In this document: positions 1,685 to 31,523 of the stretch, piece after piece
How the letters are laid out: the number at the start of each line of letters is the position of its first letter
Position numbering within the stretch: the stretch's first letter is position 1
Source: Dehalococcoidia bacterium
GTDB lineage: Bacteria > Chloroflexota > Dehalococcoidia > DSTF01 > WHTK01
Assembly (NCBI GenBank): GCA_965247485.1
Contig: OZ252017.1
Coordinates: 837,664 to 901,663 of the forward strand
DNA length: 64,000 nucleotides
Direction: 5' to 3'
Made by a program: the position numbers and the translations under genes
The notes under the pieces: model-generated
What the model saw: only the letters and a program-made list of their open reading frames with translations
Databases searched by the model: none
Told to the model about the DNA's origin: nothing

Positions 1685-2791
1685 GTGAAAGTTGCAGAGA
1701 TTTCGCTATTCCCGTTTCGCATCCCATTTCGCCGACCCTATGTAACTGCGGCGGGCACCGCCGAAACTCGTGATGGCCTGATCTTTCGCCTGCGGACTGA
1801 CACCGGAATCGTTGGATACGGTGAATCCTCTGTTCTACCCCACAATCCAATTCAATTTGAGGACCTCGCCGACCCGGCGGAAGCCGCGGCCAAGGCGGCC
1901 CTAGGCCAAAACCTTGATCTAACGCCAAATGCGAATCCAGCTGGGGAACCAGCAGTCGTTGCCGCTCGATCGGGACTTGAAATGGCGGCATGGGACGCTC
2001 GTGCCCAGGATAGAGCTCTGCCCCTAGCCCGCCTGCTGAACCCGAAAGCCACTCAAGCGGTGGCTGTAAACGCCCTGCTCAGCCAAAGTTCCCTGGACAA
2101 AACCCTCACCGCCGCCCGAAAGGCGGTTGCAGCCGGCTTCAAGACACTCAAACTCAAGGTCGGAACCTTGCCCGATTTGGCTGGCGAGGAACAGCGGTTG
2201 GCCGCGGTGCGCGCGGTGGTTGGCGCCGACATCAAGCTGCGCCTCGATGCCAATGGCGCTTGGGGCGAAGCTGAGGCCGGGGAGATACTCAACGCCTTCG
2301 CTGCCTACGACATCGAATACGTCGAACAACCAATCGCCGCCGGAAATATCGAAGCGATGCGGCGTCTGCGTTCGAGGACCTCGACCAGAATCGCCCTCGA
2401 CGAAGACGTCACCAGCTTCGCCGCCGCCCAAAACGTTCTCGCGGCCAAAGCCGCCGACTTTCTGATCCTCAAGCCAATCTGCCTCGGCGGAATCGATTCC
2501 ACGATCAAAATCGCCGAAGCGGCACGGGCCGCCGGCGTCGAGGTCGTGATAACAACATCGATTGACACGGGCGTCGGCACCGCGGCAGCCCTGCATCTCG
2601 CCGCTGCGTTGCCCGACCAAAACGCCGCCGGCCTCGCGACGCTGGACCTGCTCTCGTCTCATCTGCTGAAGACCGCACCGGCGATCCAGAATGGGTGCAT
2701 GGCCATTCGCACTCAATCAGGCCTCGGGGTCGAACCTGACCCGGCGGCGCTCGCAAGATTCACGCTACGGCGCATTGAGGTTACGCCGTGA
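1685..2791 (+). CDS. menC: o-succinylbenzoate synthase (enolase superfamily)
   Basis: Enolase-superfamily motifs (KLKVG, LRLDANGAW, ALDEDV); position between menB and menE; GTG start. Confidence 0.7.
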   Translation: MKVAEISLFPFRIPFRRPYVTAAGTAETRDGLIFRLRTDTGIVGYGESSVLPHNPIQFEDLADPAEAAAKAALGQNLDLTPNANPAGEPAVVAARSGLEMAAWDARAQDRALPLARLLNPKATQAVAVNALLSQSSLDKTLTAARKAVAAGFKTLKLKVGTLPDLAGEEQRLAAVRAVVGADIKLRLDANGAWGEAEAGEILNAFAAYDIEYVEQPIAAGNIEAMRRLRSRTSTRIALDEDVTSFAAAQNVLAAKAADFLILKPICLGGIDSTIKIAEAARAAGVEVVITTSIDTGVGTAAALHLAAALPDQNAAGLATLDLLSSHLLKTAPAIQNGCMAIRTQSGLGVEPDPAALARFTLRRIEVTP

Positions 2792-4287
2792 CTGCTTCCG
2801 CCAGTGGCCGGCTCCCGGACTGGCTTCGCGAGCGCGCGAGCTTATCGCCTACTCACACCGCCCTCGTCTGCAACGACGATGTTTGGACCTTCGACGAACT
2901 TGACCGGCGCGCCGATCAGACCGCCATCAGCTTGCTCCTGGCTGGCCTGCGTCCCCGCGAGCGCGTAGCCTTGCTCGCCGGCAATAGCGCCGCCTTCGCC
3001 CAGGTCGCCTTCGCAACCGCCCGAACCAGCGCTACGCTGGTGCCCTTGAACATTCGCCTCACTCAAGCGGAAATCGGTTGGCAACTCTCGGATTGCCAGC
3101 CGGCCTTTATCATCACCGATAAACCCGAACTGATTGGCTCCTCGGCCGCTAGCGGCGCCGGCACCCCAGTTCTCTCCCTTGAAGAGCTCACCACCACGGC
3201 AAGTCACGAAGGGTCCGCGCCCGAACCAGAGATCGATGCCGACGACCCTCGGTGTATCTTCTACACCTCTGGCACCACCGGGAATCCCAAGGGTGCGATC
3301 CTGACTCACGCCAATTTCTTCTGGAGCGCCTTTGGTTCGCTGCTCCAGCTGGGACATCAGACCGGTGACCGCTGGCTGGCCTGCCTGCCGCTGTTTCACA
3401 TCGGCGGCCATTCAATCCTGACTCGCTGCGTGATCAACGGCACCACCAGCGTGATTCACGACTCGTTTGACGCGGAAGAGGCCAATCGTGCCATCGAAAG
3501 CGAAGCTGTCACCATGATTTCCGTTGTCCCGACCATGCTGCAGCGTATGCTCGATGCTCGAGGAGACCAGCCTTTCCCTGCAAACCTGCGCTGCGTCCTT
3601 CTCGGCGGCGGCCCCGTCTCCGGTGAGCTTACGCAACGCTGTCTGCGTCTCGGCGTACCAGCCTCTCAAACCTACGGCTTAACCGAGACAACATCCCAGA
3701 TTACGACCTTGGGACTGCAAGAGCTGGAGCAAAAGCCGGGCTCGGCCGGACGGCCGCTGATGCGATCCAAGATCAGGATTGAACGTCAAGATGGCTCTGT
3801 TTGCCAGCCCGGCGAAACCGGCGAGATTGCCGTCAGCGGCCCGACCATTACCTCGGGCTACTTTGGGCTTCAACAGGAGACAGCTCGCGCCCTTCGCGAC
3901 GGCTGGCTCCAGACCGGCGATGCCGGCTACCTGGATGCCGATGGCTACCTGTTCGTCATCGACCGCCGCGACGACCTGATCGTCTCCGGCGGTGAGAACG
4001 TCTACCCGGCCGAGGTCGAGGCGGTGTTGGAGTCGCACCCTGCCGTTTTGGAGGCCGGTGTCTTTGCTCAGGATGACCCGGACTGGGGTCAATCAGTTGT
4101 GGCTGCCGTCCTCCTCAAGACGGGCACTCAGGCCGATGCCGATGAGCTCCGAAGTCACTGCCGCCAATCGCTGGCGTCATTCAAAGTCCCAAAAACAATT
4201 TGGTTGACCGATGAGCTGCCCCACACCGCATCTGGCAAGCTCCTGCGCCGCGACTTGCGCTCGCGCTTCGCCCCCAGGCAAGCTTGA
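2788..4287 (+). CDS. menE: o-succinylbenzoate-CoA ligase (AMP-binding enzyme)
   Basis: AMP-binding signature YTSGTTGNPKG, YGLTET, GWLQTGD; overlaps menC stop (GTGA). Confidence 0.75.
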   Translation: MTASASGRLPDWLRERASLSPTHTALVCNDDVWTFDELDRRADQTAISLLLAGLRPRERVALLAGNSAAFAQVAFATARTSATLVPLNIRLTQAEIGWQLSDCQPAFIITDKPELIGSSAASGAGTPVLSLEELTTTASHEGSAPEPEIDADDPRCIFYTSGTTGNPKGAILTHANFFWSAFGSLLQLGHQTGDRWLACLPLFHIGGHSILTRCVINGTTSVIHDSFDAEEANRAIESEAVTMISVVPTMLQRMLDARGDQPFPANLRCVLLGGGPVSGELTQRCLRLGVPASQTYGLTETTSQITTLGLQELEQKPGSAGRPLMRSKIRIERQDGSVCQPGETGEIAVSGPTITSGYFGLQQETARALRDGWLQTGDAGYLDADGYLFVIDRRDDLIVSGGENVYPAEVEAVLESHPAVLEAGVFAQDDPDWGQSVVAAVLLKTGTQADADELRSHCRQSLASFKVPKTIWLTDELPHTASGKLLRRDLRSRFAPRQA

Positions 4288-17796: not shown

Positions 17797-17870
17797 GCGG
17801 CCAAGGTGTTGTGGTGGCATTCGTCCCTCCCACGGATGAGGCGGGGGTTCAATTCCCCCTGGCCGCTCCA
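17797..17870 (+). tRNA. tRNA, probably tRNA-Gly (anticodon CCC), 74 nt with encoded CCA; integration target of the downstream island
   Basis: Acceptor GCGGCCA/TGGCCGC, anticodon stem CGTCC/GGATG with loop CTCCCAC, T-arm GGGGG-TTCAATT-CCCCC, discriminator T, CCA; D-stem is weak (GTGT/GCAT), hence moderate confidence. Confidence 0.55.
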
Positions 17871-17871
17871 G
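17847..17871. repeat. attL core: 25-bp direct repeat GTTCAATTCCCCCTGGCCGCTCCAG (tRNA 3' end), identical copy at 30205-30229
   Basis: Exact 25/25 match between the two positions. Confidence 0.7.
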
Positions 17872-17897
17872 TCTTTTGCTTCGGTTTTGTATCTAAA

Positions 17898-17919: not shown

Positions 17920-17947
17920 CTAGGGTTCTGACCGCCTATCTGACCGC

Positions 17948-19075
17948 CTAACCGTGAAAAAGCTTATCCATGACGCTTACAGCTTGCTCCTGGGCGCCCT
18001 CGATCACGTGAGCGTAAATGCGCAATGTAGTCGAGATGTCGCTGTGGCCGAGCAGCTCCGAAACCACCTTGACCGGGACACCCTGAGAGAGCAGAACGGT
18101 CGCCGCGGTGTGTCTCAAATCGTGAAATCTCATTCGTGGTAGGCCTGCCTTGTCAAGTAACGGATGCAGCCCGCGGCTTAGGACGTGGCTATTGTCTAGG
18201 GGCTTGCCGAGCGCGTTTGTGAATGCGAGCCCGTATTCTTTCCACGCGGCGCCGGCAAGTTGGCGCTGACTGGGTTGATTAAGTCGATGGGTTTCTAGGG
18301 CCTCGCAAGCGGTTGCCGATAGCCAAACTGTGCGGCGTGACTTCTGAGTCTTCGGCTGGCCAAACAGAGGCTCGCCACCTCTCACTGTGGTCAACGTGCG
18401 GCTCACCTGAACCCGTTGGCGCTCGGTGTCTATGTCGCTCCACCGCAAAGCTTGGAGCTCGCCGAGTCGAAGACCTGACGTTAGTGCGAGGACAAAGAAC
18501 GCCTCAAGGGGATGACCTCTCGCGGCCTCGAGAAGCTGACGGGCATCCTCCGGGCCCAGGTGTCTTTGCTCGCCAGTGCTGCGCCGCGGCGGCGTGACGA
18601 GCGATGCGACATTTCGCCCAACAAGGCCCAGGCGCTCGGCATCACGCAAGGCGACATGGAGAACGCCATGACAATGCGCCACGGTGGTTGCACTGACTCG
18701 CCTTCCAATGGAGGCATAGGCTGCTCGCAAATCGGCCGGCTGAAGCTTGGAAAGGACGCGCCTTCCGAGTGCTGGCCCAAGATGTAGACGGCAAAGTGTG
18801 TTGTAGCGGCGCCACGTTTCCGGCCGTAAATCGCCCTGCTTGCCCTCTAGCCAGCTCGACAAGTACGCGCCAACCAAGAGTTTGTCACCTAGCAACGGGA
18901 GATTATCGTCCTGGCGCTTCTGGGCGTCCCGGAGCTTTTTGGAGACCTCAATGCGAGTCTTGCCGAATAGTGACCGGCGCCGCCGTTTTCCCGTGCTGGG
19001 CAGCGTTAGAGTGGCCTCCCAGCGGCCGTCTGCACGGAGACGGATGCTGCCTTCGCCCTTACCTCTCCGAGTCAT
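17948..19075 (-). CDS. int: tyrosine-type site-specific integrase
   Basis: C-terminal catalytic region HDLRHTAATVLLSQGVPVKVVSELLGHSDISTTLRIYAHV (R..H..R..Y); adjacent to tRNA and att repeat. Confidence 0.9.
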   Translation of the reverse strand: MTRRGKGEGSIRLRADGRWEATLTLPSTGKRRRRSLFGKTRIEVSKKLRDAQKRQDDNLPLLGDKLLVGAYLSSWLEGKQGDLRPETWRRYNTLCRLHLGPALGRRVLSKLQPADLRAAYASIGRRVSATTVAHCHGVLHVALRDAERLGLVGRNVASLVTPPRRSTGEQRHLGPEDARQLLEAARGHPLEAFFVLALTSGLRLGELQALRWSDIDTERQRVQVSRTLTTVRGGEPLFGQPKTQKSRRTVWLSATACEALETHRLNQPSQRQLAGAAWKEYGLAFTNALGKPLDNSHVLSRGLHPLLDKAGLPRMRFHDLRHTAATVLLSQGVPVKVVSELLGHSDISTTLRIYAHVIEGAQEQAVSVMDKLFHG

Positions 19076-19077
19076 CG

Positions 19078-19848
19078 TTAGCCTCCCTTTTTAATCATGG
19101 CAAGACGTGCCGCTATGTCATCTACATAGACCCCTCTAGGGGCCATTTTCCGGAGCCAGGAGTGAACAGGGCCCATTAACTCTGCGCCATATTTGATGTG
19201 TATAATCTCCGGATCTAGGATGTCTTCGTAAGTAAGTTGGGTGTCGGCTGTCTTTGGCTGGTAAGGGAAGGATTTCTCGCCAGACTGCGGCGGCCAAGTG
19301 CCACGAAACTCTTGGTGGACGCGAGCGTATGTTTCGTCGTCACGCCATAGAGCCCACCCCAAATATGCCTCCAAAGTCCGGCGGTCGGTCTCAGAAGCCC
19401 GCTCTGGCCTGCGCTCCCAAAACGCGAGGTCGACCGCCATCCACATACGGCTTTGGGGGCTGGCGTCGGGGGCAGCCTGCGTAACACGCCAAAACCAAAG
19501 CATGACCGGCAACAAAGGCCGTTTCAAACGATCTCCGATTGGGTTTAGTTCCCTTGCCAGATCGAAAAAGGCAGAGCTTGCTTCCCATGGTAAGGATCCG
19601 TCATCACTGAACGACTCGGGCCAGGTGACCACCTCTAGCCATCGACGTTCAGGGTTTGGTATCCGGGCCTCTCGGATGATGTCACTGACCGCACGAAGGC
19701 TGGGAGTCTTCTTACCCTTATACCCTTCCAGTCCCTCGGCGATCTTTGCTTGAATTAGCCGGCGCATAACCACGGCTCCCATCTGGCTATGGTTAACTGC
19801 GTTCACCTCAATCGTCCTACGGATTTGTGGATCGATTCTTGCTGGCAT
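19078..19848 (-). CDS. hypothetical protein, leftward gene next to int (position of a satellite/prophage master regulator)
   Basis: 256-aa ORF, Trp/Arg-rich, no recognisable motif. Confidence 0.45.
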   Translation of the reverse strand: MPARIDPQIRRTIEVNAVNHSQMGAVVMRRLIQAKIAEGLEGYKGKKTPSLRAVSDIIREARIPNPERRWLEVVTWPESFSDDGSLPWEASSAFFDLARELNPIGDRLKRPLLPVMLWFWRVTQAAPDASPQSRMWMAVDLAFWERRPERASETDRRTLEAYLGWALWRDDETYARVHQEFRGTWPPQSGEKSFPYQPKTADTQLTYEDILDPEIIHIKYGAELMGPVHSWLRKMAPRGVYVDDIAARLAMIKKGG

Positions 19849-19997
19849 TTGCCTACAAATCCTCCCTAGCTGCTATGTCCTTGGATTTTACTTCCATAGC
19901 ATTGCCATTCTGGCGCTTGACGACTGCCATACCAGGATTGATTCTACATCTCAGCAGAGGGCTGTCAAGGGATGGCAACCGCAAGAGGAGGCACCAA

Positions 19998-20192
19998 ATG
20001 GTAACCGAGACCACACGGCTAGCTTATCGAAGGATGGAAGCTGCAAAGGCCATCGATGTCAGCACCGACACCCTGGACAGATTGATTCAACGCGGAGAGA
20101 TCAAGTCTTTCAAGATCGGCGCCGCCATCTGCATCAGCGCTGACGAGCTCACACGTTTCATCAGAGAGCGCGAAGCGGCCGGCGGCGGCTAG
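19998..20192 (+). CDS. excisionase/AlpA-like helix-turn-helix DNA-binding protein
   Basis: AKAIDVSTDTLDRLIQRGEIKSFKIG HTH; RBS GGAGG upstream of ATG 19998; divergent from int. Confidence 0.55.
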   Translation: MVTETTRLAYRRMEAAKAIDVSTDTLDRLIQRGEIKSFKIGAAICISADELTRFIREREAAGGG

Positions 20193-20198
20193 CGCGAA

Positions 20199-20456
20199 GT
20201 GACGACCGCTGCCCATCATCCCAACTTCGTAGAACGCGACGAGATCTTGCGCCTACATCCAGGGCCGTGGAAAAAGAGCGGCGCCTGGCAGATGGCCTTC
20301 TGCCCAGTTCTAGCGCACGGCGACGGCCAGAAGCATGGCGGCAGGGGTGGCGAGTCCCTCGGGCTCTCAGACAAGGGCGTGCTCTCCTGCTTTGCTGGCT
20401 GTGCCTTTCGTGATGTCATGGCAGCGCTGCGGGCGGGTGATCAGGCGATTCGATGA
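20199..20456 (+). CDS. primase CHC2-type zinc-finger domain protein (separate small ORF preceding Toprim gene)
   Basis: CPVLAHGDGQKH...SCFAGC resembles the DnaG CHC2 zinc-binding motif; GTG start; stop overlaps next start. Confidence 0.5.
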   Translation: MTTAAHHPNFVERDEILRLHPGPWKKSGAWQMAFCPVLAHGDGQKHGGRGGESLGLSDKGVLSCFAGCAFRDVMAALRAGDQAIR

Positions 20457-22288
20457 CACCTTTGGGCGCTAAGCCGACGAACTGGTATGGCGAGACGATC
20501 TCGGGCTGGTATGGATATCAAGATGAAGCTGGCTCGGTTCGGTTTGACGTTGCGCGAACGCCCAGCAAAGAGTTTCCTGTCTATCACCCGGAAGGCACGA
20601 AATGGGCCAAGGGGTACGGCGGTCGGCGAATCCTCTACCGACTCCCCGAACTATTAGAGGCAGATCCAGCCGAGCCGGTTCTCTTATGCGAGGGCGAGAA
20701 GGACGCTGACCGGGCCCGGGCCGAAGGGTTCACCGCCACCACTACGCCAGGCGGCGCCTGGGCGGCTGATCATTGCGACCTCGGGCCGCTCGTTAATAGA
20801 ACTGTCGCGATCCTCCCAGACAACGACGAAGGGGGTGAAAACTATAGCTCTACGTTAACGGGCCTACTCGTTGGCAAGGCCGCCTCGATCAAGGTCATTG
20901 ACCTAACCGGCGTTCCGCCAAAAGGCGACGTTAGTGATTGGTTCGACGCCGGGCATGGCTCTGAGGAACTGAAGCAGTTGATCGGGCAACAAACGCCGGT
21001 AACACCCGTTTCTCCTCCGCAGCCTTCCACCTCGCAATCAACTACGTTGCTATTCCGGACGCCGCGACAAATCGCCCAACTCACACCCGAAACCCCAGAC
21101 GCGGTGGTCGCAGGCATCCTTGTAAGAGGCGCAATGACGGAAGTCAGCGCCAAAATCAAGACCGGCAAGACGACCTTCATGGGGCACTTAATCGCTGCTG
21201 TTCGCTCTGGGCACGACTTCTTAGGCTTGAAAACAAAACGCACAGCTTTTGTTGTGCTTACTGAGGAGCGAATTCAAACAATGCGAGCGGCCCTAGGGCG
21301 CGTCGGCCTTCTAGATGCGGACGATGTCCACATTCTCTCTCTGTACGACGCTGGCAAGCTCCCATGGCCCGACATAGTTGCCGAGGCGGAGAAATATGCC
21401 AAGGAGGTTGGCGCCGGCGTTATCGTCGTGGATACGCTTACTCGCTGGGCGCGCATTCCAAGCGATGATGAGAACAGCTCTGGCGCCGCGGCTGAAGCTA
21501 TTGAGCCCTTGGAGGCGGCAGCTGCTCATGGGTTCGCAATCCTTGTTATCCGTCACGACCGAAAAAGCGGAGGTGAGCTAGGAGACAGCGCTCGCGGGTC
21601 GTCAGCATTCGGTGGTGCTGCCGACATCATCCTCAACCTTCGCAGAGCGAATACCGAAGGCCATGAAAGTCGCCGGATATTACTAGGCGTCGGGCGCTTT
21701 GATGACGTTCCGTCTCAACTGACTATCGAGCTTCAAGCCGGCCGCTACGTAGTTCTTGGCGACACTGCCGCCATAGAACGTGACGAAACAAAGAGCCGAC
21801 TCCTGGACGTTTTGCCAGGTGTAAGCGGAGACCCTATTCGAGAGGATGATGTTCTTGCGCGGCTTGGCACTGAAGCAAAGAGATCAACTGTTCGGCGCGC
21901 CCTCAATGACCTGGTCGCGAATGCGTCCGTTGAACGAGTCTCCGGACTTGGGACGCGAGGCACTGCGAAAGGCTATCGCTTAGGCTCCCGTTACTCTACT
22001 GACCAGCCTATAGAGATGGACCCTGGTCAGAAGACTAACTCTCACGTTCCTGAAAGTAACGTGGATTACTTTAGTGACCAGCCCCATACCCCTGGTCAGA
22101 AACATAGTCCCCTACTCAACGGAAACTCTACTGACCAGCCCCCATTTCCTATAGGTGGTCAGTTGGGTAAGAACGACCTTTGCACAGAGCTTGGGTGTGA
22201 ACGTCCCGGTACTCACGCCAATCCAACCGATGGTGAGCTCGTTTGTCTGTATCACTTCACGCGGATGACCGCTGAGGTTGCGTCGTGA
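20453..22288 (+). CDS. Toprim-domain DNA primase fused to RecA-like (AAA_25/RepA-type) helicase domain; repeat-rich C-terminal tail
   Basis: Toprim motifs LCEGEKDADRA and ILPDNDEGG; Walker A KTGKTT, Walker B VIVVDTL; C-terminal STDQP/PGQK repeats and a Cys-rich tail. Confidence 0.8.
   Translation: MTPLGAKPTNWYGETISGWYGYQDEAGSVRFDVARTPSKEFPVYHPEGTKWAKGYGGRRILYRLPELLEADPAEPVLLCEGEKDADRARAEGFTATTTPGGAWAADHCDLGPLVNRTVAILPDNDEGGENYSSTLTGLLVGKAASIKVIDLTGVPPKGDVSDWFDAGHGSEELKQLIGQQTPVTPVSPPQPSTSQSTTLLFRTPRQIAQLTPETPDAVVAGILVRGAMTEVSAKIKTGKTTFMGHLIAAVRSGHDFLGLKTKRTAFVVLTEERIQTMRAALGRVGLLDADDVHILSLYDAGKLPWPDIVAEAEKYAKEVGAGVIVVDTLTRWARIPSDDENSSGAAAEAIEPLEAAAAHGFAILVIRHDRKSGGELGDSARGSSAFGGAADIILNLRRANTEGHESRRILLGVGRFDDVPSQLTIELQAGRYVVLGDTAAIERDETKSRLLDVLPGVSGDPIREDDVLARLGTEAKRSTVRRALNDLVANASVERVSGLGTRGTAKGYRLGSRYSTDQPIEMDPGQKTNSHVPESNVDYFSDQPHTPGQKHSPLLNGNSTDQPPFPIGGQLGKNDLCTELGCERPGTHANPTDGELVCLYHFTRMTAEVAS
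21994..22165. repeat. three imperfect copies of palindromic unit CT(A/G)(C/T)TGACCAGCC-N7-14-CCTGGTCAGAA inside the primase-helicase gene 3' end (candidate replication-origin iterons)
   Basis: CTGACCAG / CTGGTCAG inverted arms at 21998-22030, 22075-22100, 22131-22162. Confidence 0.5.
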
Positions 22289-22938
22289 ACCGCCAGGAGA
22301 GGCGCCGGGCGGGCAAAGCCGACAAGGGCCTCACAGAGAAGCTACGCGCTGAGCTACCCGGTATTCTCGGCTGGGCTGTGCGTGGGTGCCTTGAATGGCA
22401 ACGGCGTGGCCTCGAGCCGCCGGCCTCTATACAAGCAGCGACCGACGACTATCGCACTGAGAGCGATCCTTTAGCGGGCTTCCTCGCTGAGTACTGCGTT
22501 CTTGGTGACGGGCTGGCATCACCAGCCAACCCGCTGTACAAGGCCTACGCCCGGTGGGCGGCTGATCAAGGTTATCGCGACCGCGAATTGCTCACGAGCA
22601 CGGCATTTGGGCGGCTGGCGGGGAGTCGTTTCGACAGTGGCCGGAGCCGCGCCGGGAAGGTTTATTACGGCCTAGGTCTCTTAAATGCACAGCAAAGTGA
22701 TCTAAAGGTGACGGGTTTCACGTCTGACGACCCGTCACTTCCACTAAACCTTCCTATGTATTCACCTACGCGAGATTTGTTAGAAAACTCGTCACAACCC
22801 GTCACACCCGTCACAGAGGAAAACGAGCTCTGCACTCAGGCCAATTGCGACCTTCCGGGCACCCACGCCGAGCCAACTACTGGCGAACTTGTTTGCCTTG
22901 CCCACTTCCAGAAATTGGCTTCAGAGGTGACGTCGTGA
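22285..22938 (+). CDS. phage/plasmid primase P4-family C-terminal domain protein (D5/PriCT-like)
   Basis: Conserved pattern GILGWAVRGCLEWQRRGL...TDDYRTESDPLAGFLAEYC; ends with same Cys-rich tail as preceding gene. Confidence 0.6.
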   Translation: MNRQERRRAGKADKGLTEKLRAELPGILGWAVRGCLEWQRRGLEPPASIQAATDDYRTESDPLAGFLAEYCVLGDGLASPANPLYKAYARWAADQGYRDRELLTSTAFGRLAGSRFDSGRSRAGKVYYGLGLLNAQQSDLKVTGFTSDDPSLPLNLPMYSPTRDLLENSSQPVTPVTEENELCTQANCDLPGTHAEPTTGELVCLAHFQKLASEVTS

Positions 22939-23068
22939 ACCGTGAAAATCGGTGGCTCATGATGAGGGGGAAGGGGCCCTCGGATACTTCTCAGATATGG
23001 AAACGAACACCGCTACCCTACCACTCCTCGCACGCGGTCAGGTTTCAACCAAGGGGGGTTCAGCCTTA

Positions 23069-23545
23069 ATGGGTTCTCGCGGACCTTCGCCAAAGCCCAC
23101 AGCACTAAAGGCCTTGCATGGCACCGCTCGTCGCGACCGGAGCAATCCAAGCGAGCCTCAGCCGCAGGTCACCGCCGTTTCTTGTCCCGCGTTCCTAGAC
23201 TCCGCGGCGAAGGCAGAGTGGCGCCGGCTCATCCCGCACCTGGTCAAGTTGAAACTCATGAGCGATCTAGACCGGGGCCTCCTCGCTGCCTATTGCGCGG
23301 CCTGGAGTCGCTGGCGGAAGGCGGAGCTTGCGATCCAGAAGTTCGGTGAGGTCTTAGCGACGCCAAGCGGGTATATGCAGAAGAACCCTCACGTGACGAT
23401 TGCCAACGAATCAATCAGAACGCTCGAGAAACTGGCGGGGCACTTCGGTCTGTCGCCATCCACAAGGACGCGGGTTAGCGCCACACCAGAGGAGCAGGAG
23501 GACGATCCATTCGATGAATGGGAGCAGCGAAGGAGGTCGAGGTGA
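23069..23545 (+). CDS. terS: phage terminase small subunit, P27 family
   Basis: GPSPKPTALKALHGT...AKAEWRRLIPHLVKLKLMSDLDRGLLAAYCAAWSRW...NPHVTIANESIRTLEKLAGHFGLSPSTRTR matches the P27 TerS pattern; ATG 23069 preferred. Confidence 0.8.
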   Translation: MGSRGPSPKPTALKALHGTARRDRSNPSEPQPQVTAVSCPAFLDSAAKAEWRRLIPHLVKLKLMSDLDRGLLAAYCAAWSRWRKAELAIQKFGEVLATPSGYMQKNPHVTIANESIRTLEKLAGHFGLSPSTRTRVSATPEEQEDDPFDEWEQRRRSR

Positions 23546-23937
23546 TAAGGGCCATGATCGAACCGCTAACCGAAACCCCACCGCCGCCGGACTTCATCGG
23601 TAACCGAGATGCGGAGTGGGTGCGCGACTGGCACACACTCGCCGGAAAGCTCGTCGCATCGCGCACCTTGGCCGAGCTGGACCTAGTAATGCTCTGCCTG
23701 CTTATCGACGCTTGGCAGATCTACAGCCGCGGCCTTCGAGACATCGCCCGTTATCCAGAGCCAGAAGGCCTAAGGGAATCAATCGAAGAATGGCGGCTTC
23801 ACGCTCGCCAAGCCGCCAGTGAGTTTTTTCTTATACCTGAATCGCGAATCAATTTAGGAATCGTGGCCGACGCCGGCGGAGACAGCGAGTTATCGGCCCT
23901 TTTTCGAGAGAACAACGACGAATCAATCACGCAATAG
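23518..23937 (+). CDS. hypothetical protein with weak TerS-like helical pattern (second small-terminase-like/packaging-interference candidate)
   Basis: DAEWVRDWHTLAGKLVASRTLAELDLVMLCLLIDAWQIY mirrors the P27 A..EW..L...L..L.D...L...AW spacing. Confidence 0.35.
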   Translation: MGAAKEVEVIRAMIEPLTETPPPPDFIGNRDAEWVRDWHTLAGKLVASRTLAELDLVMLCLLIDAWQIYSRGLRDIARYPEPEGLRESIEEWRLHARQAASEFFLIPESRINLGIVADAGGDSELSALFRENNDESITQ

Positions 23938-24689
23938 CGGGCCGTAGGCCCGCCCAGTCAAGGGAGGAAAGACGATGGCAGCCACAGCGATTCAGGAAAT
24001 TAGCAAAAACGCGAAAGTCGACTACTGGCAGAACGATCATCCCTACGAGGTGGTTCGCATCGAGCCGTGAATTCCTGGACGAAATTGACTCATGATTATT
24101 CCTCGAGCATTTGAGGGCACATGGCTTGAGCCAGAGGAGCCTGCCTGGCGACCTGGAGACCCTTTCCCTGCGCCGTGGATACGTGAGGAATCGGAGAGAT
24201 GGTTAAGAAACTAATCAGCGAGAGCACCTCGCCAAGTTGAAGATGGTGACTGTTTTTGGTACGCCGAAAGCCCATAACTGGACAACTTACGCTCTGTTTA
24301 GAGTGAGTCTACAGCTGTGAATCGCCCGCCGCTTAGTAGCGTAGGCTTGGAAGGCAGATCGCACCGTGCGCTGTAGCAGCGTATCTAGGACCGTGAGCGA
24401 GAGCTGTCCAGTTATGGTGTGAAAGTTCTTGGGATTTTCTCCTACGCGATGCGGCGCCGTCCGGCGACCATGCTAAGAAGCCATGCAGTCAACGAAACCC
24501 TTGCCGACCCGCAGTTTGTCCGCGCCAATCCCAGGCTATCAATGCCTTAATCTCCACGGTCGGGACCTAAACTGTCCAAATTCTTACGGCCCTCGACCTG
24601 AACAGCGATGGCGCTGAGATTGACGAAGAGGACCGCCAATAGGCCACAGCAAGTCAGATTCGTGGTCGTGTATGAGGCGGGAAAGGATG

Positions 24690-24981: not shown

Positions 24982-26034
24982 ATGCCGTACACGACAATGA
25001 TGAGAAGGCGGGGACGATACGGAGTCCCAATGCAGACGTACGGGTCGATCATCCCAGGCGGTCCAACCCTGGCTCGTCTCCTCCCAGAGGGAGCGCAGGA
25101 AGGCAGGGAGGAGCCACGACTATCACGTGAGGCGAAGGCGCGCCTCAGGGCTGTTGAGTGGCACAAGGATCACGGCGAGAAGGTGAGTCTGACGGCAAGA
25201 CGCTTTGGACGCAGCCGCTCAACCCTTTACTAGTGGCTAGAGTGCTACCGGCTCCGGGGTCCGCGGGGTCTGGAAGACCGCAGCCATAGGCCACACCAGG
25301 TCCGCAAGCCGACTTGGAGCCTAGAGTTCGAAGCAGCGGTGCTACGCCTGCGCCAAGACAATCCCGTCTGGGGCAAAGACAAGCTACAGCCGATCCTCAG
25401 ACGCGAAGGGGTCACTATCTCGGTCTCGATTGTGGGCCGCATCCTTAGCCGGCTCAGACGCCAAGGCAAACTGGGGCCTGCGAGTCTGAAGGACCCTTGC
25501 ATCGTCTCTCGGCCTCAGGTGCGGCCCTATGCCGTGCGTGAGCCCAAAGACTACGTCGTCAAGGCGCCGGGAGATCTGGTTCGGTGGACAGCGCCGACGT
25601 GCGCTGGACCGGTATTACCTGGCGCGTGATATTGTCAGCCGCTGGGACGTCTTGGGTGTCTACGGCCGCGCTACCGCCGGCACGGCGCGCGACTTCCTCG
25701 ATACGGTCATCGAGCGTATGCCGGGTCCGGTGAAGGCGATCCAGGTGGACGGTGGCTCTGAGTTCAGGGCCGAGTTTGAGGCCGCCTGTGAGCAGAAGGG
25801 GCTGCGGCTTTTTGTGCTGCCACCATGCTCCCCCAGGCTCAACGGCTGCGTGGAACGAGCCCAGCGCACCCACAAAGAGGAGTTTACCAGTTGGTTGACC
25901 CACCCGACTCGCTCAGCCAACTGAGAACCCAGCTGCTCCAACAGGAGCAGCGTTACAATACTTACCGGCCCCATCAGGCCCTTGGCCATCTAACGCCGCA
26001 AGAGTGGCTGCTAGCATTCACCGAGAGGAAGTAA
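24982..26034 (+). mobile_element. degraded IS481-family insertion sequence (transposase ORF split into at least 4 frames)
   Basis: HTH piece (24982-25233), LRLRQDNPVWGKDKLQPILRREG piece, DDE/rve core (DGGSEFRAEF...LPPCSPRLNGCVERAQRTHKEEF) and C-terminal YNTYRPHQALGHLTPQEWL piece in different frames. Confidence 0.7.
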
Positions 26035-26102
26035 GTGTCCGGCATCTACTGGACGAGTACAAGCACTTGCGCCTTCCAAACCGTCGCCCTACACTAATTG
26101 CA

Positions 26103-26170: not shown

Positions 26171-26467
26171 ATAGCTTCGAGACTAATCCCTCTTGCCGAC
26201 AAGCTTGTTCTTAGGCCGATTGTCCAGGAGGAAGTCCTCTCCAGCGGAATCGTCATTCCAGACACCGCCAAAGAAAAGCCTAACCAGAGCGAAATCATCG
26301 CCGTGGGTCCAGGAAAGCGCGACGAGGACGGCAAAGTGATCATCCCGGAGGTCGTGATTGGTGACCGAGTGCTTTACGCCAAGTACACCGGCCAAGAGAT
26401 CAAGGTAGAAAATGAAGAGCTAATCGTTCTAGCGGAGAAAGATATCCTCTGCAAGGTCGAAGTCTAA
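26171..26467 (+). CDS. groES: co-chaperonin GroES (10 kDa chaperonin); apparent ATA start codon 5 nt after GGAGG
   Basis: Translation (I)ASRLIPLADKLVLRPIVQEE...GIVIPDTAKEKPNQSEIIAVGPGKRDEDGKVIIPEVVIGDRVLYAKYTGQEIKVENEELIVLAEKDILCKVEV; not in ORF track because no ATG/GTG/TTG start. Confidence 0.75.
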   Translation: MASRLIPLADKLVLRPIVQEEVLSSGIVIPDTAKEKPNQSEIIAVGPGKRDEDGKVIIPEVVIGDRVLYAKYTGQEIKVENEELIVLAEKDILCKVEV

Positions 26468-26491
26468 GTCCGCCCGCGTTAGGAGGGTCTA

Positions 26492-26551
26492 TTGGCAAAA
26501 CAAATCGTTTTTGATGAAGAGGCGCGTCGCTCACCGAAGGGTGAATCGTGA
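26492..26551 (+). pseudogene. groEL: groEL 5' remnant: 19 codons (L/M)AKQIVFDEEARRS... then unrelated sequence and stop
   Basis: AKQIVFDEEARR is the conserved GroEL N-terminus; RBS AGGAGGG upstream; TTG start; reading frame terminates at 26549-26551. Confidence 0.6.
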
Positions 26552-26769: not shown

Positions 26770-27728
26770 TAATCCTCAACGCGCCACCACACCTAAAGCC
26801 GAAAGGAGAAGAGGGCCTCCACGAGATGGCCCGCAGGATACGTTTTCGAAGCTGACGATTCGCGAGGCGTTCTGCGGACCTCTAGGAACCGGCAGGTTTT
26901 GCAACGATTTGGAAAATGAGGCTGGTTGCACTAAGACTTCGGCGCCAGACGACTTTCTTGCCTTGGCTCGATGCAGCAAGGGATGTCCGTCTCTTAATCG
27001 CTCGTTGAGAATCATCCTCGCTCAGGTCGATGGCTCCCCAATCGCCAACTTTAAGGGAACCTAAATATTCCAAGTACTCAGTGAGATCCTGGAGGTTAGT
27101 ATGCCTTCGCGTAAGATGACTAACTTCTGCATCAGACAGCTTCCTAAAATTTGGCATTGAAGTATCCCTCCAAGCTAATTCGTGGGTGCTCCACAGGAGC
27201 CCTATTGGATGCTAATCATAGGCCAAATTAGACGTCAAGCGTATACTCATTTTACTCCTGCTCTTTATTTCGACTATATTGTTATCGTAAGGGAATATGC
27301 ATTAGGCAGCAAGTGGGAAGCTCTCGCCGTGACAATGCATGATGCCCGCTCGTGGCACGAGACGCATAACGCCTAATGGCCCCTCCAGATTCCAAGTCAG
27401 GACCGAAACTGAAACAGCCGGTGGGGATCCAAGAGATCGGTCGGCGGCTGGCATTTGGGCCCCCGGGATACTTCCTAGGCTCGCTATCTGAGTGCGGGTG
27501 TTGGCCCGTAAAGAACATTCGCTAGCATCTGACCGCCACTGGTTTCTTCGAACCTCGTCAGACCGTTTGACTTGGAATCTTGAACCAACCTCTCAAACCA
27601 TCCAAGATATTGTCAGCAGAGTACGAGTCTTAGTCTTCGCTAACTGCATTCGCCAATGAGCTAAAAGAGAGATTCTTTGGTAGACTAATTCGAACCGTAT
27701 ATAGCCAATTGCAAAGACCGCTACCTAT

Positions 27729-28517
27729 TTGAGCAAGTTGAACTATATGCAGCAGACACGGAGAGTATTCGCTATGGAGCACCTTCTACCTTCTGAAGAC
27801 ACAGCCCGAGATCGACTATGTGTAGCGCTCGACTTGGCGGGAAGAGCTGACATTTCTCGGTGTATTTCAGAACTCGCAGATTTAGTCGGTTATTTTAAGG
27901 TAAATTCTGCATTTGCTCTGTACGGTCGTAGCCTGATCGAAGAAATATCCGAAGCTGGGGCCAAAGTTTTTCTCGATTTGAAACTCCATGACATTCCACA
28001 TGCTGTATCTGGATATGCAGATGCAGTCACTCGATTGGGAGTCGATTTAGTAACGGTTCACATCGCTGGCGGTACCCACATGCTTAAAGAACTTGTCAGA
28101 ACAGCAGATGACACAGCTAAAGAACTTGGAGTCAAGCGACCATTATTCATCGGTGTCACAGTCCTGACTAGTGTTGACAAGAGTATTCTCAACTCTGAGA
28201 TGAACATCAGGGGCGATGTTCGTCAGGAGGTGGCAAGAAGAGCCTTCTTAGCCGCGAAATCAGGACTCGATGGCATCGTCTGCTCTGCCGAAGACTTACA
28301 TTTCGTGAAGGGTGACCTACCCGAGGACTTCTTCTATGTAACACCGGGGATACGTGGTCTCAATGAGGAATCTCAAGACCATAAACGAGTTCTCTCCTAC
28401 GGGGAATCGGTTCAGGCAGGAGCAAGCTTGCTAGTTGTGGGCCGGGCGATCGTATCTGCTCCAGCCAGACGCGATGCGGCTTCCAAAATCCTGAGTGAAA
28501 TGACAGTGGAGGTCTGA
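27729..28517 (+). CDS. orotidine 5'-phosphate decarboxylase (PyrF type 1)-family protein, island cargo
   Basis: Hallmark motifs VALD...KVFLDLKLHDIPHAV, VTVH, VTVLTS, CSAED, VTPGIR, VVGRAI; lower GC than flanking chromosome. Confidence 0.8.
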   Translation: MSKLNYMQQTRRVFAMEHLLPSEDTARDRLCVALDLAGRADISRCISELADLVGYFKVNSAFALYGRSLIEEISEAGAKVFLDLKLHDIPHAVSGYADAVTRLGVDLVTVHIAGGTHMLKELVRTADDTAKELGVKRPLFIGVTVLTSVDKSILNSEMNIRGDVRQEVARRAFLAAKSGLDGIVCSAEDLHFVKGDLPEDFFYVTPGIRGLNEESQDHKRVLSYGESVQAGASLLVVGRAIVSAPARRDAASKILSEMTVEV

Positions 28518-28518
28518 G

Positions 28519-29097
28519 TTGGACTTCTCTCGCAAACCAGTCATTGGCTGCATCCACCTTCTGCCGACTCCAGGCTCTCCAGAATACGATGGTGACATGG
28601 CAAGGGTGTCCAATCTTGCACTCGAGGAAGCCGCCATTCTCAGAAGGTGCGGCGTCGACGCGCTCATTGTTGAGAACTTCCGGGACGGACCCTTCTTTCC
28701 AGAAGCTGTTCCAGTAGAGACGGTCGCCGCTATTTCAGGTGTCGCCCGCGAGATCGTGATGACAGGGGACGTACCCGTAGGTATAGCCGTTCTTCGCAAT
28801 GACGCCGAAGCCGCGATAGCGATAGCAACGGCAGTAGGCGCACAGTTCGTTCGTATAAACGTGCATATAGGCGCCGTGCTCGCGGAGCAAGGAATCGTTC
28901 AGGGCCGAAGTTTCGCGAGTATGCGATTACGGGCTAATCTACGCTCAAATGTTGCGATTTGGGCTGATGCGCGGGTCAAGCACTCCTTCCCTTTCGTATA
29001 TTCGAGTATCTCACAGGAGATTCGTGATCTAAACGGAAGAGCAGACGCAATTCAGCCCTGCGGTCCGCACTGGGCGCCTCTAAAGGCATCGCACTGA
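28519..29097 (+). CDS. BtpA/SgcQ-family (TIM-barrel) protein, C-terminally truncated relative to family (192 aa)
   Basis: PVIGCIHLLPTPGSPEY N-terminal motif and ADARVKH typical of BtpA; family members are usually about 260 aa; possible frameshift near 29065. Confidence 0.5.
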   Translation: MDFSRKPVIGCIHLLPTPGSPEYDGDMARVSNLALEEAAILRRCGVDALIVENFRDGPFFPEAVPVETVAAISGVAREIVMTGDVPVGIAVLRNDAEAAIAIATAVGAQFVRINVHIGAVLAEQGIVQGRSFASMRLRANLRSNVAIWADARVKHSFPFVYSSISQEIRDLNGRADAIQPCGPHWAPLKASH

Positions 29098-29279
29098 ATG
29101 AAGACGCCGGCATTGCGTTAAAGGCACTGCTGGAGGCCCCCTTAGCTCGTCAGGCCCTTGTACGCCGCCACGTCGAACTCCTCCACAATCGGGGAAGAAT
29201 GGCTGCCGGCAGTCCTGATTCTTTTAGAGGCTGAAGAGAAGCAGGCAGAGGCGGAGCGGCTGGACGCAGAGGGCTCGCT

Positions 29280-29585
29280 ATGACTGCTAGTCAACCCACC
29301 GAGACTTTCATCGTTCACGTACAGGACACTGAGACTATGCAGCTCCTCCAGTACCAGGTCGACTTCGGCGCGGCTACCGCAATTCGGGAATTATGCCGGG
29401 CATTGCAGGGTGTAGGCCGGGCTCAAGCCTCCGATGTGGGTGAGGCTCCCGTGACCACTCAGGAGCTTCTCCAGCTCCACGTTGAGGCTCTCCTGACGGT
29501 CCCCGAAGAATGGCTGGAATCGGCGCTGATCCAACTGGAGTCATGGGCCAAGATCGCCGGCGACTACCAGCCAGACACGGGCTAA
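29280..29585 (+). CDS. hypothetical acidic protein (101 aa)
   Basis: ORF with decent codon periodicity; no motif. Confidence 0.35.
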   Translation: MTASQPTETFIVHVQDTETMQLLQYQVDFGAATAIRELCRALQGVGRAQASDVGEAPVTTQELLQLHVEALLTVPEEWLESALIQLESWAKIAGDYQPDTG

Positions 29586-29647
29586 GGCCAGGCGTATAGT
29601 CGAAGGAATGACCGCGGGCGAAAACAAGACAGGCCTAATGAGACAAA

Positions 29648-29962
29648 ATGGACACGCCAAAGGAGTTCCCAGAAGAGCTGCTGCCATATCTGGAGCAGTT
29701 GGCGTCTGAGGACCGAGAGCGCCTGCTCGCAGAATTCGAGCGCGACATTCACGTAGAAGAGGCAAGGGCTCTAACGGGCGACAAGCTGGCGAACGAACTA
29801 GAGCGGCTGATAGCTATGGTGAAACTGCTCTCGCTCTTGAAGAAGCAAGAGGGCCCGGAAGCGCTCCGGTTGTTTAGTGATCGCGTCGGACTTTTACCGG
29901 GGCAGCTTGAGGCTCGGCTTAATGACCTCGACGACATTGAGCATATATGGGATGCGCAATAG
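29648..29962 (+). CDS. hypothetical acidic helical protein (104 aa)
   Basis: Glu/Leu-rich, predicted helical; no motif. Confidence 0.35.
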   Translation: MDTPKEFPEELLPYLEQLASEDRERLLAEFERDIHVEEARALTGDKLANELERLIAMVKLLSLLKKQEGPEALRLFSDRVGLLPGQLEARLNDLDDIEHIWDAQ

Positions 29963-30204
29963 GGCCCCCAGGGGACCTCGAAAACCTTAGAGCAAACGGC
30001 CTTGGAACCGCTGGCGAACCACTTTCCGGCTATTTATGAATTCCAAATGTTTTTAGAAAAGGTTTGCAGTGCCCACTTTCGCCACCTTTTGACCGCCTAT
30101 CTGACCGCCAGACGCAGCGGAACTATGCGGTCTCTAGCGGCCTAGATGGTAGAATCTGAATCTAGATGCGGCCCTTAGCGGTTTTGAGCGGAGCCTTAGA
30201 GGAA

Positions 30205-30229
30205 GTTCAATTCCCCCTGGCCGCTCCAG
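30205..30229. repeat. attR core: second copy of 25-bp direct repeat GTTCAATTCCCCCTGGCCGCTCCAG
   Basis: Exact match to 17847-17871. Confidence 0.7.
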
Positions 30230-30335
30230 ATTTTGCCCAACCGCGCTGATCTTAGGCACGGTCTAGCCATTCCAACATCGCGTCGGATCTTGGCGCGGCC
30301 TGGCTCTACCAGCCAGCGAGGACGCGCAACCGATC

Positions 30336-31523
30336 ATGACCACAGATAACGAAGACGAGGACGATTCCCAACAGCAAGAACCGCTCAGCGCTGACGGCGA
30401 AGAACCCGGCGCGTTAGAACCGCTTGAGCCGGCCAAGCTCCGCCCGGGCGGGCCGGTCGCACGTCGAATTTATACCTCCGGCCGTCCGGAACTCGACCAA
30501 CTCGTGGCCGAAATCTTGCGCGAACTCGAAACCGGCGCTGCCCCGACCGAGGCAGCACCGATCAGCACCGCGACCCTTGAGTTGGCGCGGGAGATGCTAA
30601 CCTCCTCTCTTCGACTCGTTTTGCAGCACGCCACCCGGGCAGAAATAAAACTTGTCAACGCCGCCCTCAAGGAGTTCGCCTACTCCTTCCGAGTCTTTGC
30701 CCCCTACCGCGACCTGCCCAAGGTCAGCATCTTCGGCTCGGCCCGAGTCGCTCCCGGCGAGCCGGCCTACCTCGCGGCTCGTGATTTCGCCATTGCCATC
30801 GCTGCCAAGGGTTGGATGGTTATAACCGGCGCCGGTCCCGGGATCATGGCCGCCGGCCACGAGGGCGCCGGTGCCAGTCAAAGCTTCGGCGCCAACATTC
30901 AGCTGCCAGCCCTCAACCCGGCTAACGCCTACATCGCCAAAGACGACAAACTGATCAACTTTAAATACTTCTTCACGCGCAAAGTTACTTTCCTCAAGGA
31001 ATCCAGCGCCTTCGTCCTTCTGCCCGGAGGATGGGGAACCCTGGACGAAACGTTTGAGCTGCTGACCCTGATGCAAACCGGCAAAAGCGACCTCCACCCG
31101 GTCGTACTCCTCGAACCGGAGGGCAGCAGCTACTGGCACCGCTGGCTGGAATTCCTACGTGAGGAAGTCCTTCAGCGCGGCTTCATTCTTGAGAGCGATC
31201 TCTCGCTGTTGTGCATCGCCAATAACGCTGAAGAGGCAGTCGACGAAGTAGAGGCCTTCTACCGCAATTATCAATCCGCTCGCTTCGTCGGTGACCACTT
31301 GGTTCTGCGGCTCAAGCAGGCTCCCAGCCCCGCGGCGCTAAGGCGCCTTAATCGTGAATTTACCGACCTCCTGGAGGAGGGTTCTTTTGAAGTAATAGAG
31401 CCGACGGCGCCCGAAAAACGCGACCAGGATTCACTCGACAGTGAACGCCTGGCCTTCTTTCCCAAGCACGCCTACGGCCGGCTGCGCGAACTAATCGATG
31501 TCTTGAACGACCTGACTGAGTAA
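30336..31523 (+). CDS. LOG-family protein (TIGR00730 / Rossmann-fold nucleotide-binding, lysine decarboxylase-like) with N-terminal extension
   Basis: KVSIFGSARV...ITGAGPGIMAAGHEGA...LPGGWGTLDETFELLTLMQTGK motifs. Confidence 0.75.
   Translation: MTTDNEDEDDSQQQEPLSADGEEPGALEPLEPAKLRPGGPVARRIYTSGRPELDQLVAEILRELETGAAPTEAAPISTATLELAREMLTSSLRLVLQHATRAEIKLVNAALKEFAYSFRVFAPYRDLPKVSIFGSARVAPGEPAYLAARDFAIAIAAKGWMVITGAGPGIMAAGHEGAGASQSFGANIQLPALNPANAYIAKDDKLINFKYFFTRKVTFLKESSAFVLLPGGWGTLDETFELLTLMQTGKSDLHPVVLLEPEGSSYWHRWLEFLREEVLQRGFILESDLSLLCIANNAEEAVDEVEAFYRNYQSARFVGDHLVLRLKQAPSPAALRRLNREFTDLLEEGSFEVIEPTAPEKRDQDSLDSERLAFFPKHAYGRLRELIDVLNDLTE

Follow-up and report, generated by a model that had tools for sequence, protein, structure and literature searches.

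A PyrF-like gene and a truncated BtpA gene in a satellite-like tRNA-Gly island of a Dehalococcoidia bacterium: probable remnant of a captured gene cassette

The DNA analyzed here, hereafter the window, is a stretch of 64,000 nucleotides from a Dehalococcoidia bacterium (contig OZ252017.1, positions 837,664 to 901,663 of the forward strand), and all coordinates below are positions within it. We examined a pair of adjacent genes at about 27.7-29.1 kb, one encoding a protein of the orotidine 5'-monophosphate (OMP) decarboxylase family (PyrF) and the other a shortened protein of the BtpA/SgcQ family, which lie within a 12.4-kb island with satellite-like genes at a tRNA-Gly gene. The two open reading frames (ORFs) and the DNA that borders them are as follows.

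27158-27773: non-coding low-GC DNA, ~0.6 kb, upstream of pyrF, without an Rfam match; contains the putative left junction
27774-28517, + strand: intact PyrF-like gene (type-1 OMP decarboxylase family), 247 amino acids (aa)
28519-29097, + strand: BtpA/SgcQ-family ORF, 192 aa
28519-29052, + strand: the part of that ORF with BtpA homology, N-terminal only, ~178-181 codons, beta1 to mid-beta6 of a predicted (beta/alpha)8 barrel
29053-29097, + strand: non-homologous 14-codon tail QPCGPHWAPLKASH*, putative right junction of the cassette fragment

The PyrF-like protein matches the Pfam OMPdecase family (PF00215) over the entire profile (152.8 bits, positions 2-221 of 221), passes the NCBIfam model NF001273 (206.6 bits, cut-off 193), and carries the motifs DLKLHDIPHAV, VTPGIR, and VVGRAI, by which a preliminary description of this DNA had recognized a complete type-1 OMP decarboxylase (OMPDC); that assignment holds. 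The start is better placed at ATG 27774 than at TTG 27729, as the database call for the same protein (P0001, 100% identical) is 247 aa long and homologues align from about residue 12. The next best database match is 59% identical, and many of the closest relatives come from Streptomyces, Micromonospora, Nonomuraea, and Paraburkholderia, while the best PDB match is the OMPDC of Coxiella (8e-40). Residues D20, K42, D68, K70, D73, G223, and R224 occupy columns that are invariant, the window protein included, and its catalytic residues were matched by motif to D37, K59, D91, K93, and D96 of the yeast enzyme. Like other type-1 OMPDCs (PF00215, NF001273; Coxiella 3TR2, E. coli 1EIX), the window PyrF is full-length and keeps the catalytic Asp/Lys network and the GR phosphate motif. 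Unlike them, it lies outside a pyr operon and belongs to a BtpA-paired clade, with a clade-wide Gln to His replacement and two changes of its own, N76H and T77A. No pyr genes were found near it, in agreement with the earlier call of an extra pyrF-type gene outside the pyrimidine operon.

The BtpA ORF begins 1 nt past the pyrF stop codon, as it does in the intact cassettes described below. Its N-terminal two thirds match the BtpA/SgcQ family strongly, with 161.9 bits against PF03437 over profile positions 2-176 of 254 only and 157.9 bits against TIGR00259 (cut-off 153.4), and it scores far below the cut-off of the cyanobacterial BtpA equivalog (164 versus 400). Unlike the family, however, the window protein is truncated after ~181 residues. 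It is 59-61% identical to partner BtpAs up to ..ADAI, and homology to the full-length partners stops at nt 29052 (..RADAI/QPCG.., the slash marking the break). Among the 120 best database relatives, it is the sole truncated one, the other 119 being 255-297 aa long. The preliminary description was right that the protein next to PyrF is cut short, but the frameshift that it suspected near 29065 can be ruled out: neither a three-frame read nor tblastn with two full-length BtpAs recovered the missing ~83 residues in any frame of the 64 kb. Judged from the sequence, the defect is a deletion or an illegitimate-recombination breakpoint at ~29052.

This result also bears on the possibility that the BtpA truncation and the apparent pseudogenes nearby are artefacts of a long-read metagenome assembly, produced by chimeric joining or by indel errors. 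The database entries P0001, P0121, and P0124 all derive from one 3.06-Mb contig, seen once, and a transposase upstream of the pair is split by frameshifts, an error type typical of long reads. Indels nevertheless cannot explain the BtpA truncation, because the missing part is absent in all frames; moreover, outside the island 20 ORFs with 300 aa or more run without interruption, and the att (attachment site) repeats of the island bracket the region coherently. We consider an artefact of this kind very unlikely.

To what extent the shortened protein could fold was judged from an AlphaFold2 (AF2) model of a full-length relative, P0139, which is 58% identical to the window BtpA. The model (predicted local distance difference test, pLDDT, 93.5) has eight strands, at residues 9-14, 49-53, 88-91, 111-114, 147-152, 178-181, 206-208, and 226-229, arranged as a (beta/alpha)8 barrel, and it suggests a barrel of the phosphate-binding type. 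Among solved structures, the folds closest to it are TrpA, ThiE, ribulose-phosphate epimerase (RPE), PRAI, and HisF (TM ~0.6), barrels in which C-terminal loops bind the substrate phosphate. By comparison with this model, the window BtpA would stop inside beta6, so that strands beta7 and beta8 would be missing along with two conserved loops, GSG and G-x-x-GS. The sole sequence-level PDB similarity of a full-length BtpA partner maps to the region that is missing in the window. With beta6 incomplete and both beta7-beta8 and the phosphate loops gone, a closed, phosphate-binding barrel presumably cannot form from the window BtpA.

Outside the window, a PyrF-like gene is directly followed by a full-length BtpA gene in Streptomyces (loci L001-L003), on one JGI contig, in Paraburkholderia (L004), and on two other contigs (L190 and L192). 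A BtpA-seeded metagenome scan returned 80 loci. Where identity to the window BtpA reaches 56% or more, a PyrF-like gene lies immediately upstream in 9/9 loci (L110-L118); at 52% or less, this is the case in 0/71. BtpA genes near other pyrFs were found in none of 80 genome loci among the matches listed (at most 46% identical) and in none of 24 viral loci. For 24 of the PyrF matches P0002-P0069, the longest contig is exactly as long as that of a BtpA match, and the organism name is often the same. Judged by gene order, a PyrF-like gene followed immediately by a BtpA-family gene is the invariant core of a cassette, five loci of which are delimited as follows.

L001: 5705-11097
L004: 6775-11379
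L114: 8026-13093
L190: 270-5015
L192: 7067-9276

The usual companions of this core are an M20 (ArgE/DapE-type) deacylase, a dTMP-kinase-like protein (Tmk-like), and a protein of ~360 aa that resembles alpha-ketoglutarate-dependent HExxH (aKG-HExxH) proteins, whose match to the peptide hydroxylase model is weak (33.9 bits, below the cut-off of 40) and which is fused to M20 in Streptomyces. A match of the cassette kinase to the PADLOC model PDC-M51B (2e-7) was judged to be generic P-loop kinase similarity. The cassette is spread over Actinomycetota (Streptomyces), Proteobacteria (Paraburkholderia and Variovorax-type contigs), and metagenomes, at GC contents from 32% to 72%; examples are Streptomyces CP109183.1 at ~10.645 Mb, Paraburkholderia sediminicola JAQQDV010000007.1, and the contig Ga0209051_1000073. 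PqqD, ABC-exporter, and small-ORF genes, or else IS elements, often adjoin it, but the surroundings vary: some loci also have genes for AurF-like, asparagine-synthase/lasso-cyclase-like, or C39 exporter proteins, and L114 is flanked by aminotransferase and FAD proteins. Annotation pipelines label the PyrF-like member plainly as orotidine-5'-phosphate decarboxylase. No account of the cassette turned up in the literature that could be searched, and it appears to be undescribed.

Insertion sequence (IS) elements of the IS66, IS3, or DDE_3 kind abut the cassette at some loci. In L110 (10964-13016), and likewise in L111 and L112, an IS66 element (transposase and TnpB) lies immediately behind BtpA and closes the cassette, and an IS3-type integrase gene lies upstream, which offers independent evidence that IS activity cuts and moves the cassette.

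The window pair shares with the intact cassettes the gene order, the near-zero spacing, and the His signature in PyrF, and its identity to cassette members is 50-64% for PyrF and 57-65% for BtpA. In contrast to them, it lacks the M20, HExxH-like, and kinase genes as well as the last third of BtpA, and it lies in a tRNA-integrated satellite-like island rather than with PqqD, ABC-exporter, and aminotransferase genes. The M20, HExxH-like, and Tmk-like genes are absent from the 64-kb window by tblastn (best E = 0.017, in unrelated places). Specifically, the M20 or Tmk gene that precedes pyrF in intact cassettes is missing from the non-coding 27158-27773, and other cassette genes hidden as fragments at 26.5-27.7 or 29.1-30.2 kb were sought by tblastn and not found. 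A search for inverted repeats revealed no convincing IS ends around the PyrF-BtpA fragment. Since the partner genes are absent, the cassette presumably cannot work as a module here.

The PyrF-like protein was also placed among its relatives. When 136 sequences were joined in a neighbor-joining tree, P0001 fell together with all BtpA-linked PyrFs, and P0044, whose pyrF lies in an operon with carB-pyrB-pyrI-pyrD-pyrK-pyrC-pyrE, stands apart from this clade. The clade is set off by a single clean replacement: at the Gln of the D-Q-x-R motif, all 66 of the other type-1 PyrFs have Gln, whereas 69 of the 70 clade members have His, including the window protein (His203). We take this Gln to be the equivalent of E. 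coli Q201 and yeast Q215, and the numbering fits the motif positions. In the sequence alignment, the bacterial Gln pairs with yeast Q216, the position next to Q215, so its structural equivalence to Q215 is presumed. In the yeast enzyme, Q215 is a phosphodianion gripper (PMC12874384). The clean Gln to His signature suggests that the clade either acts on a substrate other than OMP or grips its substrate differently.

Additional changes are specific to the window. Its PyrF-like protein has H76 and A77 in place of the clade's N-T (DIPNT to DIPHA); Ala77, the equivalent of yeast T100', replaces a Thr that at least 90% of the clade retain. By the roles given for yeast (PMC12874384), the Thr of D-I-P-N-T would grip the ribose 2'-OH and the Gln of D-Q-x-R the phosphate; both of these residues are replaced in the window protein, and in yeast the change T100'A raises the barrier for OMP by ~2.5 kcal/mol (PMC12874384). 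Across the 70 columns that are at least 90% conserved in the clade, the window protein deviates at 7, the highest number among 65 members. At most, the enzyme would retain a weakened decarboxylase activity.

The composition of the pair is foreign to its surroundings. The lowest 1-kb GC bins of the 64 kb are those at 26-29 kb (0.521, 0.477, and 0.529, against a window mean of 0.582), and at 200-bp resolution the trough runs from ~26.0 to 28.4 kb. The preliminary description had assigned low GC to everything from about 26.5 kb to the right att site; the lowest bins do fall at 26-29 kb, but the DNA from ~28.4 kb to attR is ordinary (0.55-0.62). The GC content at third codon positions (GC3) is 0.43 for pyrF and 0.54 for btpA versus 0.63-0.73 in flanking chromosomal genes, and a codon-usage log-odds score trained on the 20 long ORFs (at least 300 aa) outside the island is 0.048 for pyrF and 0.063 for btpA versus a host mean of 0.285 (standard deviation 0.055, minimum 0.129). 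Because both GC3 and codon-usage scores are below those of host genes, we consider the two genes to be of foreign origin. The island in which they lie is laid out as follows.

17797-17870: tRNA-Gly(ccc) gene
17847-17876, + strand: attL, the 3' end of tRNA-Gly(ccc)
17948-19075, - strand: tyrosine integrase, directly inside attL
19827-20192: excisionase-like ORF
20453-22288 and 22285-22938: primase/helicase over two ORFs, with AAA_25 and Pox_D5 C-terminal region
22952-23545: terminase small subunit
23518-23937: second, weaker copy of the terminase small subunit
30205-30234, + strand: attR, a copy of the tRNA-Gly 3' end, 28/30 identical to attL, with the cargo inside this boundary

With tRNA-flanked att repeats, an integrase, a replication module, and a small terminase subunit, and with no capsid or tail families seen in Pfam and PHROG scans of its larger ORFs, the island shows the features of a phage-inducible chromosomal island (PICI)-like element. 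This satellite-like context is a reasonable reading of the gene content, and the earlier placement of the pair at the accessory end of such an island was upheld. The primase/helicase and integrase have no relatives in IMG/VR, and a search with the terminase small subunit for related satellites gave matches only ~45% identical.

The position and composition of the pair also speak to whether the gene could be the host's only, housekeeping pyrF, with the island boundary misjudged. The protein does pass the NCBIfam pyrF equivalog cut-off, and our evidence covers the window only. However, the gene lies between att repeats identical at 28/30 positions and on the same island as an integrase adjacent to one of them, and its codon usage is more than 4 standard deviations below that of host genes. 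Its clade consists of BtpA-linked second copies, and in actinomycetes with such second copies, a type-2 pyrF does the housekeeping. In addition, it carries the phosphate-gripper Gln to His change and the equivalent of T100'A, with no pyr genes nearby. A housekeeping role is therefore highly improbable.

We think it likely that the pair is a captured piece of ~1.3-1.9 kb from a foreign PyrF-BtpA cassette, cut on both sides and now a non-functional remnant, with its pyrF possibly still weakly active. Under this reading, the DNA at ~27.7-29.05 kb would have been acquired horizontally and captured into the accessory end of the island as a fragment truncated at both ends. The breakpoint at 29052 would have cut beta6 short and eliminated beta7-beta8 together with the phosphate-binding loops, and the cassette content that survives would be PyrF and the first ~181 BtpA codons. 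The sequences directly show the truncation, the linkage of the two genes, the clade of the PyrF, the deviating composition, and the lack of partner genes; that function is lost and how the DNA was acquired are deduced, as is the chemistry of the parent cassette. The fragment appears to lie in a stretch of dead DNA, along with a transposase broken by frameshifts, a groES that lacks its start codon, and a groEL-like stub. Because it sits among dead genes in a satellite-like island, decaying baggage is the most likely description. The preliminary description had allowed for decaying metabolic hitch-hikers; decay fits, but the genes are the core pair of a conserved cassette rather than strays from primary metabolism.

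Several points weigh against this interpretation. That the host has a second pyrF is a presumption, as the analysis covers a 64-kb window of a 3.06-Mb contig, and misassembly at the junctions is possible, the source apparently being a metagenome-assembled contig. The PyrF-like gene has an unbroken ORF, a plausible ribosome-binding site, and all catalytic residues (D20, K42, D68, K70, D73, and R224), which leaves room for expression and activity even now. The surviving part of BtpA is barely degenerate, with 1/58 deviations, which means either that the truncation is recent or that the stub is tolerated, and that decay is inferred rather than measured; we regard the truncation as probably recent. 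Finally, a solitary clade member without BtpA (L191) suggests that the enzyme may have a stand-alone use. That gene, at 2651-3394 of a 36.5%-GC contig, is a His-signature PyrF-like gene beside a LysR regulator with no BtpA remnant, and the enzyme may serve on its own there, or the gene may be a further remnant.

These points raise the alternative that the PyrF-like protein, alone or with the BtpA stub, is functional accessory cargo that alters the pyrimidine or nucleotide pool, to the effect of anti-phage activity, helper interference, or host benefit. Its location is suggestive, since similar to the accessory cargo of PICI-type satellites, the pair occupies the att-distal end of an island with an integrase, an excisionase-like gene, a primase/helicase, and a small terminase. 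Other points in its favor are that pyrF is uninterrupted and keeps its catalytic residues, that a solitary clade member exists elsewhere, and that PyrF relatives occur on some IMG/VR contigs. Unlike such cargo, though, the pair matches no known or candidate defense family, the content of this end is gene fragments, and no related satellites carrying it were found. PADLOC-DB models gave 0 matches for PyrF, BtpA, both small acidic ORFs described below, and orf91, and PHROGs gave nothing for the pair or the small ORFs. No BtpA-clade relatives occur in IMG/VR or among INPHARED phages, the BtpAs on PLSDB plasmids are at most 46% identical to the window's, and viral PyrFs are only 27-37% identical, in loci without BtpA. 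The conserved partner BtpA is broken, the other cassette genes are missing, the PyrF-like protein has substitutions at clade-conserved residues, and the neighbors are pseudogenes. We hold functional cargo to be unlikely. The earlier statement that the pair is not a described defense system agrees with the PADLOC result, but its proposal of a new defense cargo module finds no backing in defense-family matches, in recurrence, or in the state of the partner gene. Of the checks that it suggested, the search for the same pair in other genomes succeeded for bacteria, at some loci beside IS elements, and not for phages or satellites in IMG/VR and INPHARED, nor for plasmids as far as close relatives are concerned.

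A more specific form of this idea is that the PyrF-like protein is working satellite cargo as a neofunctionalized OMPDC paralogue, its Gln to His change fitting it to a non-OMP nucleotide, for nucleotide-pool manipulation or for interference with a helper or phage. We rate this as quite unlikely; if it were true, mobile elements would be sampling, in the parent PyrF-BtpA cassette, a nucleotide-tailoring pathway not yet described.

Returning to the captured fragment as the preferred explanation, the fragment itself would be of an ordinary kind, a gene remnant that a mobile island picked up by horizontal transfer. It would remove a tempting candidate for new defense cargo and make the accessory end of the island look like a graveyard of captured gene fragments. 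As a by-product, the comparison brings out an OMPDC paralogue clade with a clean Gln to His change at the presumed phosphate-gripping position and strict coupling to a BtpA barrel. The parent cassette is worth following up, as it would offer a testable biochemical role for the poorly understood BtpA/SgcQ family and for the "second pyrF".

Regarding what the parent cassette may do, its companions and neighbors point to a specialized nucleotide-related biosynthetic or tailoring pathway rather than pyrimidine housekeeping. One BtpA-family protein, SbzO, acts on the ribose-phosphate portion of an intermediate derived from NAD (PMC9516700, PMC13518217). Unlike the SbzO system (altemicidin/SB-203208), the window has no SbzN, SbzH, or SbzP partners, and the BtpA partner elsewhere is PyrF-like. 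From an OMPDC-like site, a phosphate barrel, a companion resembling nucleoside monophosphate kinases, the deacylase and hydroxylase companions, and the SbzO precedent, one may tentatively propose that the cassette builds or tailors a pyrimidine-like unit bearing ribose 5-phosphate, which in some clusters could be attached to a peptide or act together with one.

The genes on either side of the pair within the island are the following.

24982-26034, + strand: transposase of the IS630/DDE_3 type, four ORFs in different frames, pseudogene, GC 0.61-0.65
26171-26467, + strand: groES-like gene, whole GroES domain covered
26492-26551, + strand: stub with LAKQIVFDEEARRS, then unrelated codons and a stop, read by eye
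29280-29585, + strand: small acidic ORF 1, 101 aa, pI 4.16
29648-29962, + strand: small acidic ORF 2, 104 aa, pI 4.49

The transposase may be bounded by 17-nt terminal inverted repeats at 24339-24355 and 26071-26087, which are 82% complementary. In the groES-like gene, ATA stands at the expected position of the ATG, 6 nt past an AGGAGG, and the first canonical in-frame start, GTG 26303, would cost 40+ residues; the gene is probably a pseudogene, with ATA as its lost start codon, and its codon usage is host-like. The stub LAKQIVFDEEARRS resembles, by eye, the first ~13 codons of groEL, and a ribosome-binding site lies between it and the groES copy. Together, 26171-26551 has the look of a groESL operon of which a truncated part was captured. 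Across 23.8-30.4 kb, promoter and terminator counts are at shuffle level, and an Rfam scan gave two sub-threshold chance matches only.

For the two small ORFs downstream, the earlier description as acidic proteins is correct, but nothing ties them to the pair: their codon usage is host-like and they are orphans. ORF 1 retrieved only itself and one match without an aligned stretch among 1.84 billion representatives, and ORF 2 only itself among 5.8 billion clusters; neither has a family in PADLOC, PHROGs, Pfam, or NCBIfam. ORF 2 is predicted to be all-helical at low confidence (single-sequence AF2, pLDDT 55.5). Because their codon-usage scores are host-like in frame (0.246 and 0.322) and strongly negative in the other sense frames, both look like real genes, and ORF 1 is probably a real gene unrelated to PyrF and BtpA.

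Some further observations concern the island and its edges. The two consecutive small-terminase ORFs (Terminase_4) overlap, and the second is much weaker (25.7 bits); it may be a duplication or a decayed copy. Immediately outside attR, at 30336-31523, lies a gene for a LOG/TIGR00730-family (Lysine_decarbox) protein with an N-terminal extension of ~125 residues that is acidic at its start and has no family match. A 16-nt direct repeat, ACTCTACTGACCAGCC, occurs three times, at 21993-22008, 22068-22083, and 22125-22140, with 88-100% identity and spacings of 75 and 57 nt; the copies sit in the 3' part of the primase/helicase, just past a GntR-like winged-helix region, and are possibly origin iterons of the island. 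Just inside both island ends, at 17926-17948 and 30087-30109, is a 23-nt direct repeat, TTyTGACCGCCTATCTGACCGCC, which is a tandem of TCTGACCGCC and represents candidate arm-type binding sites for the integrase.

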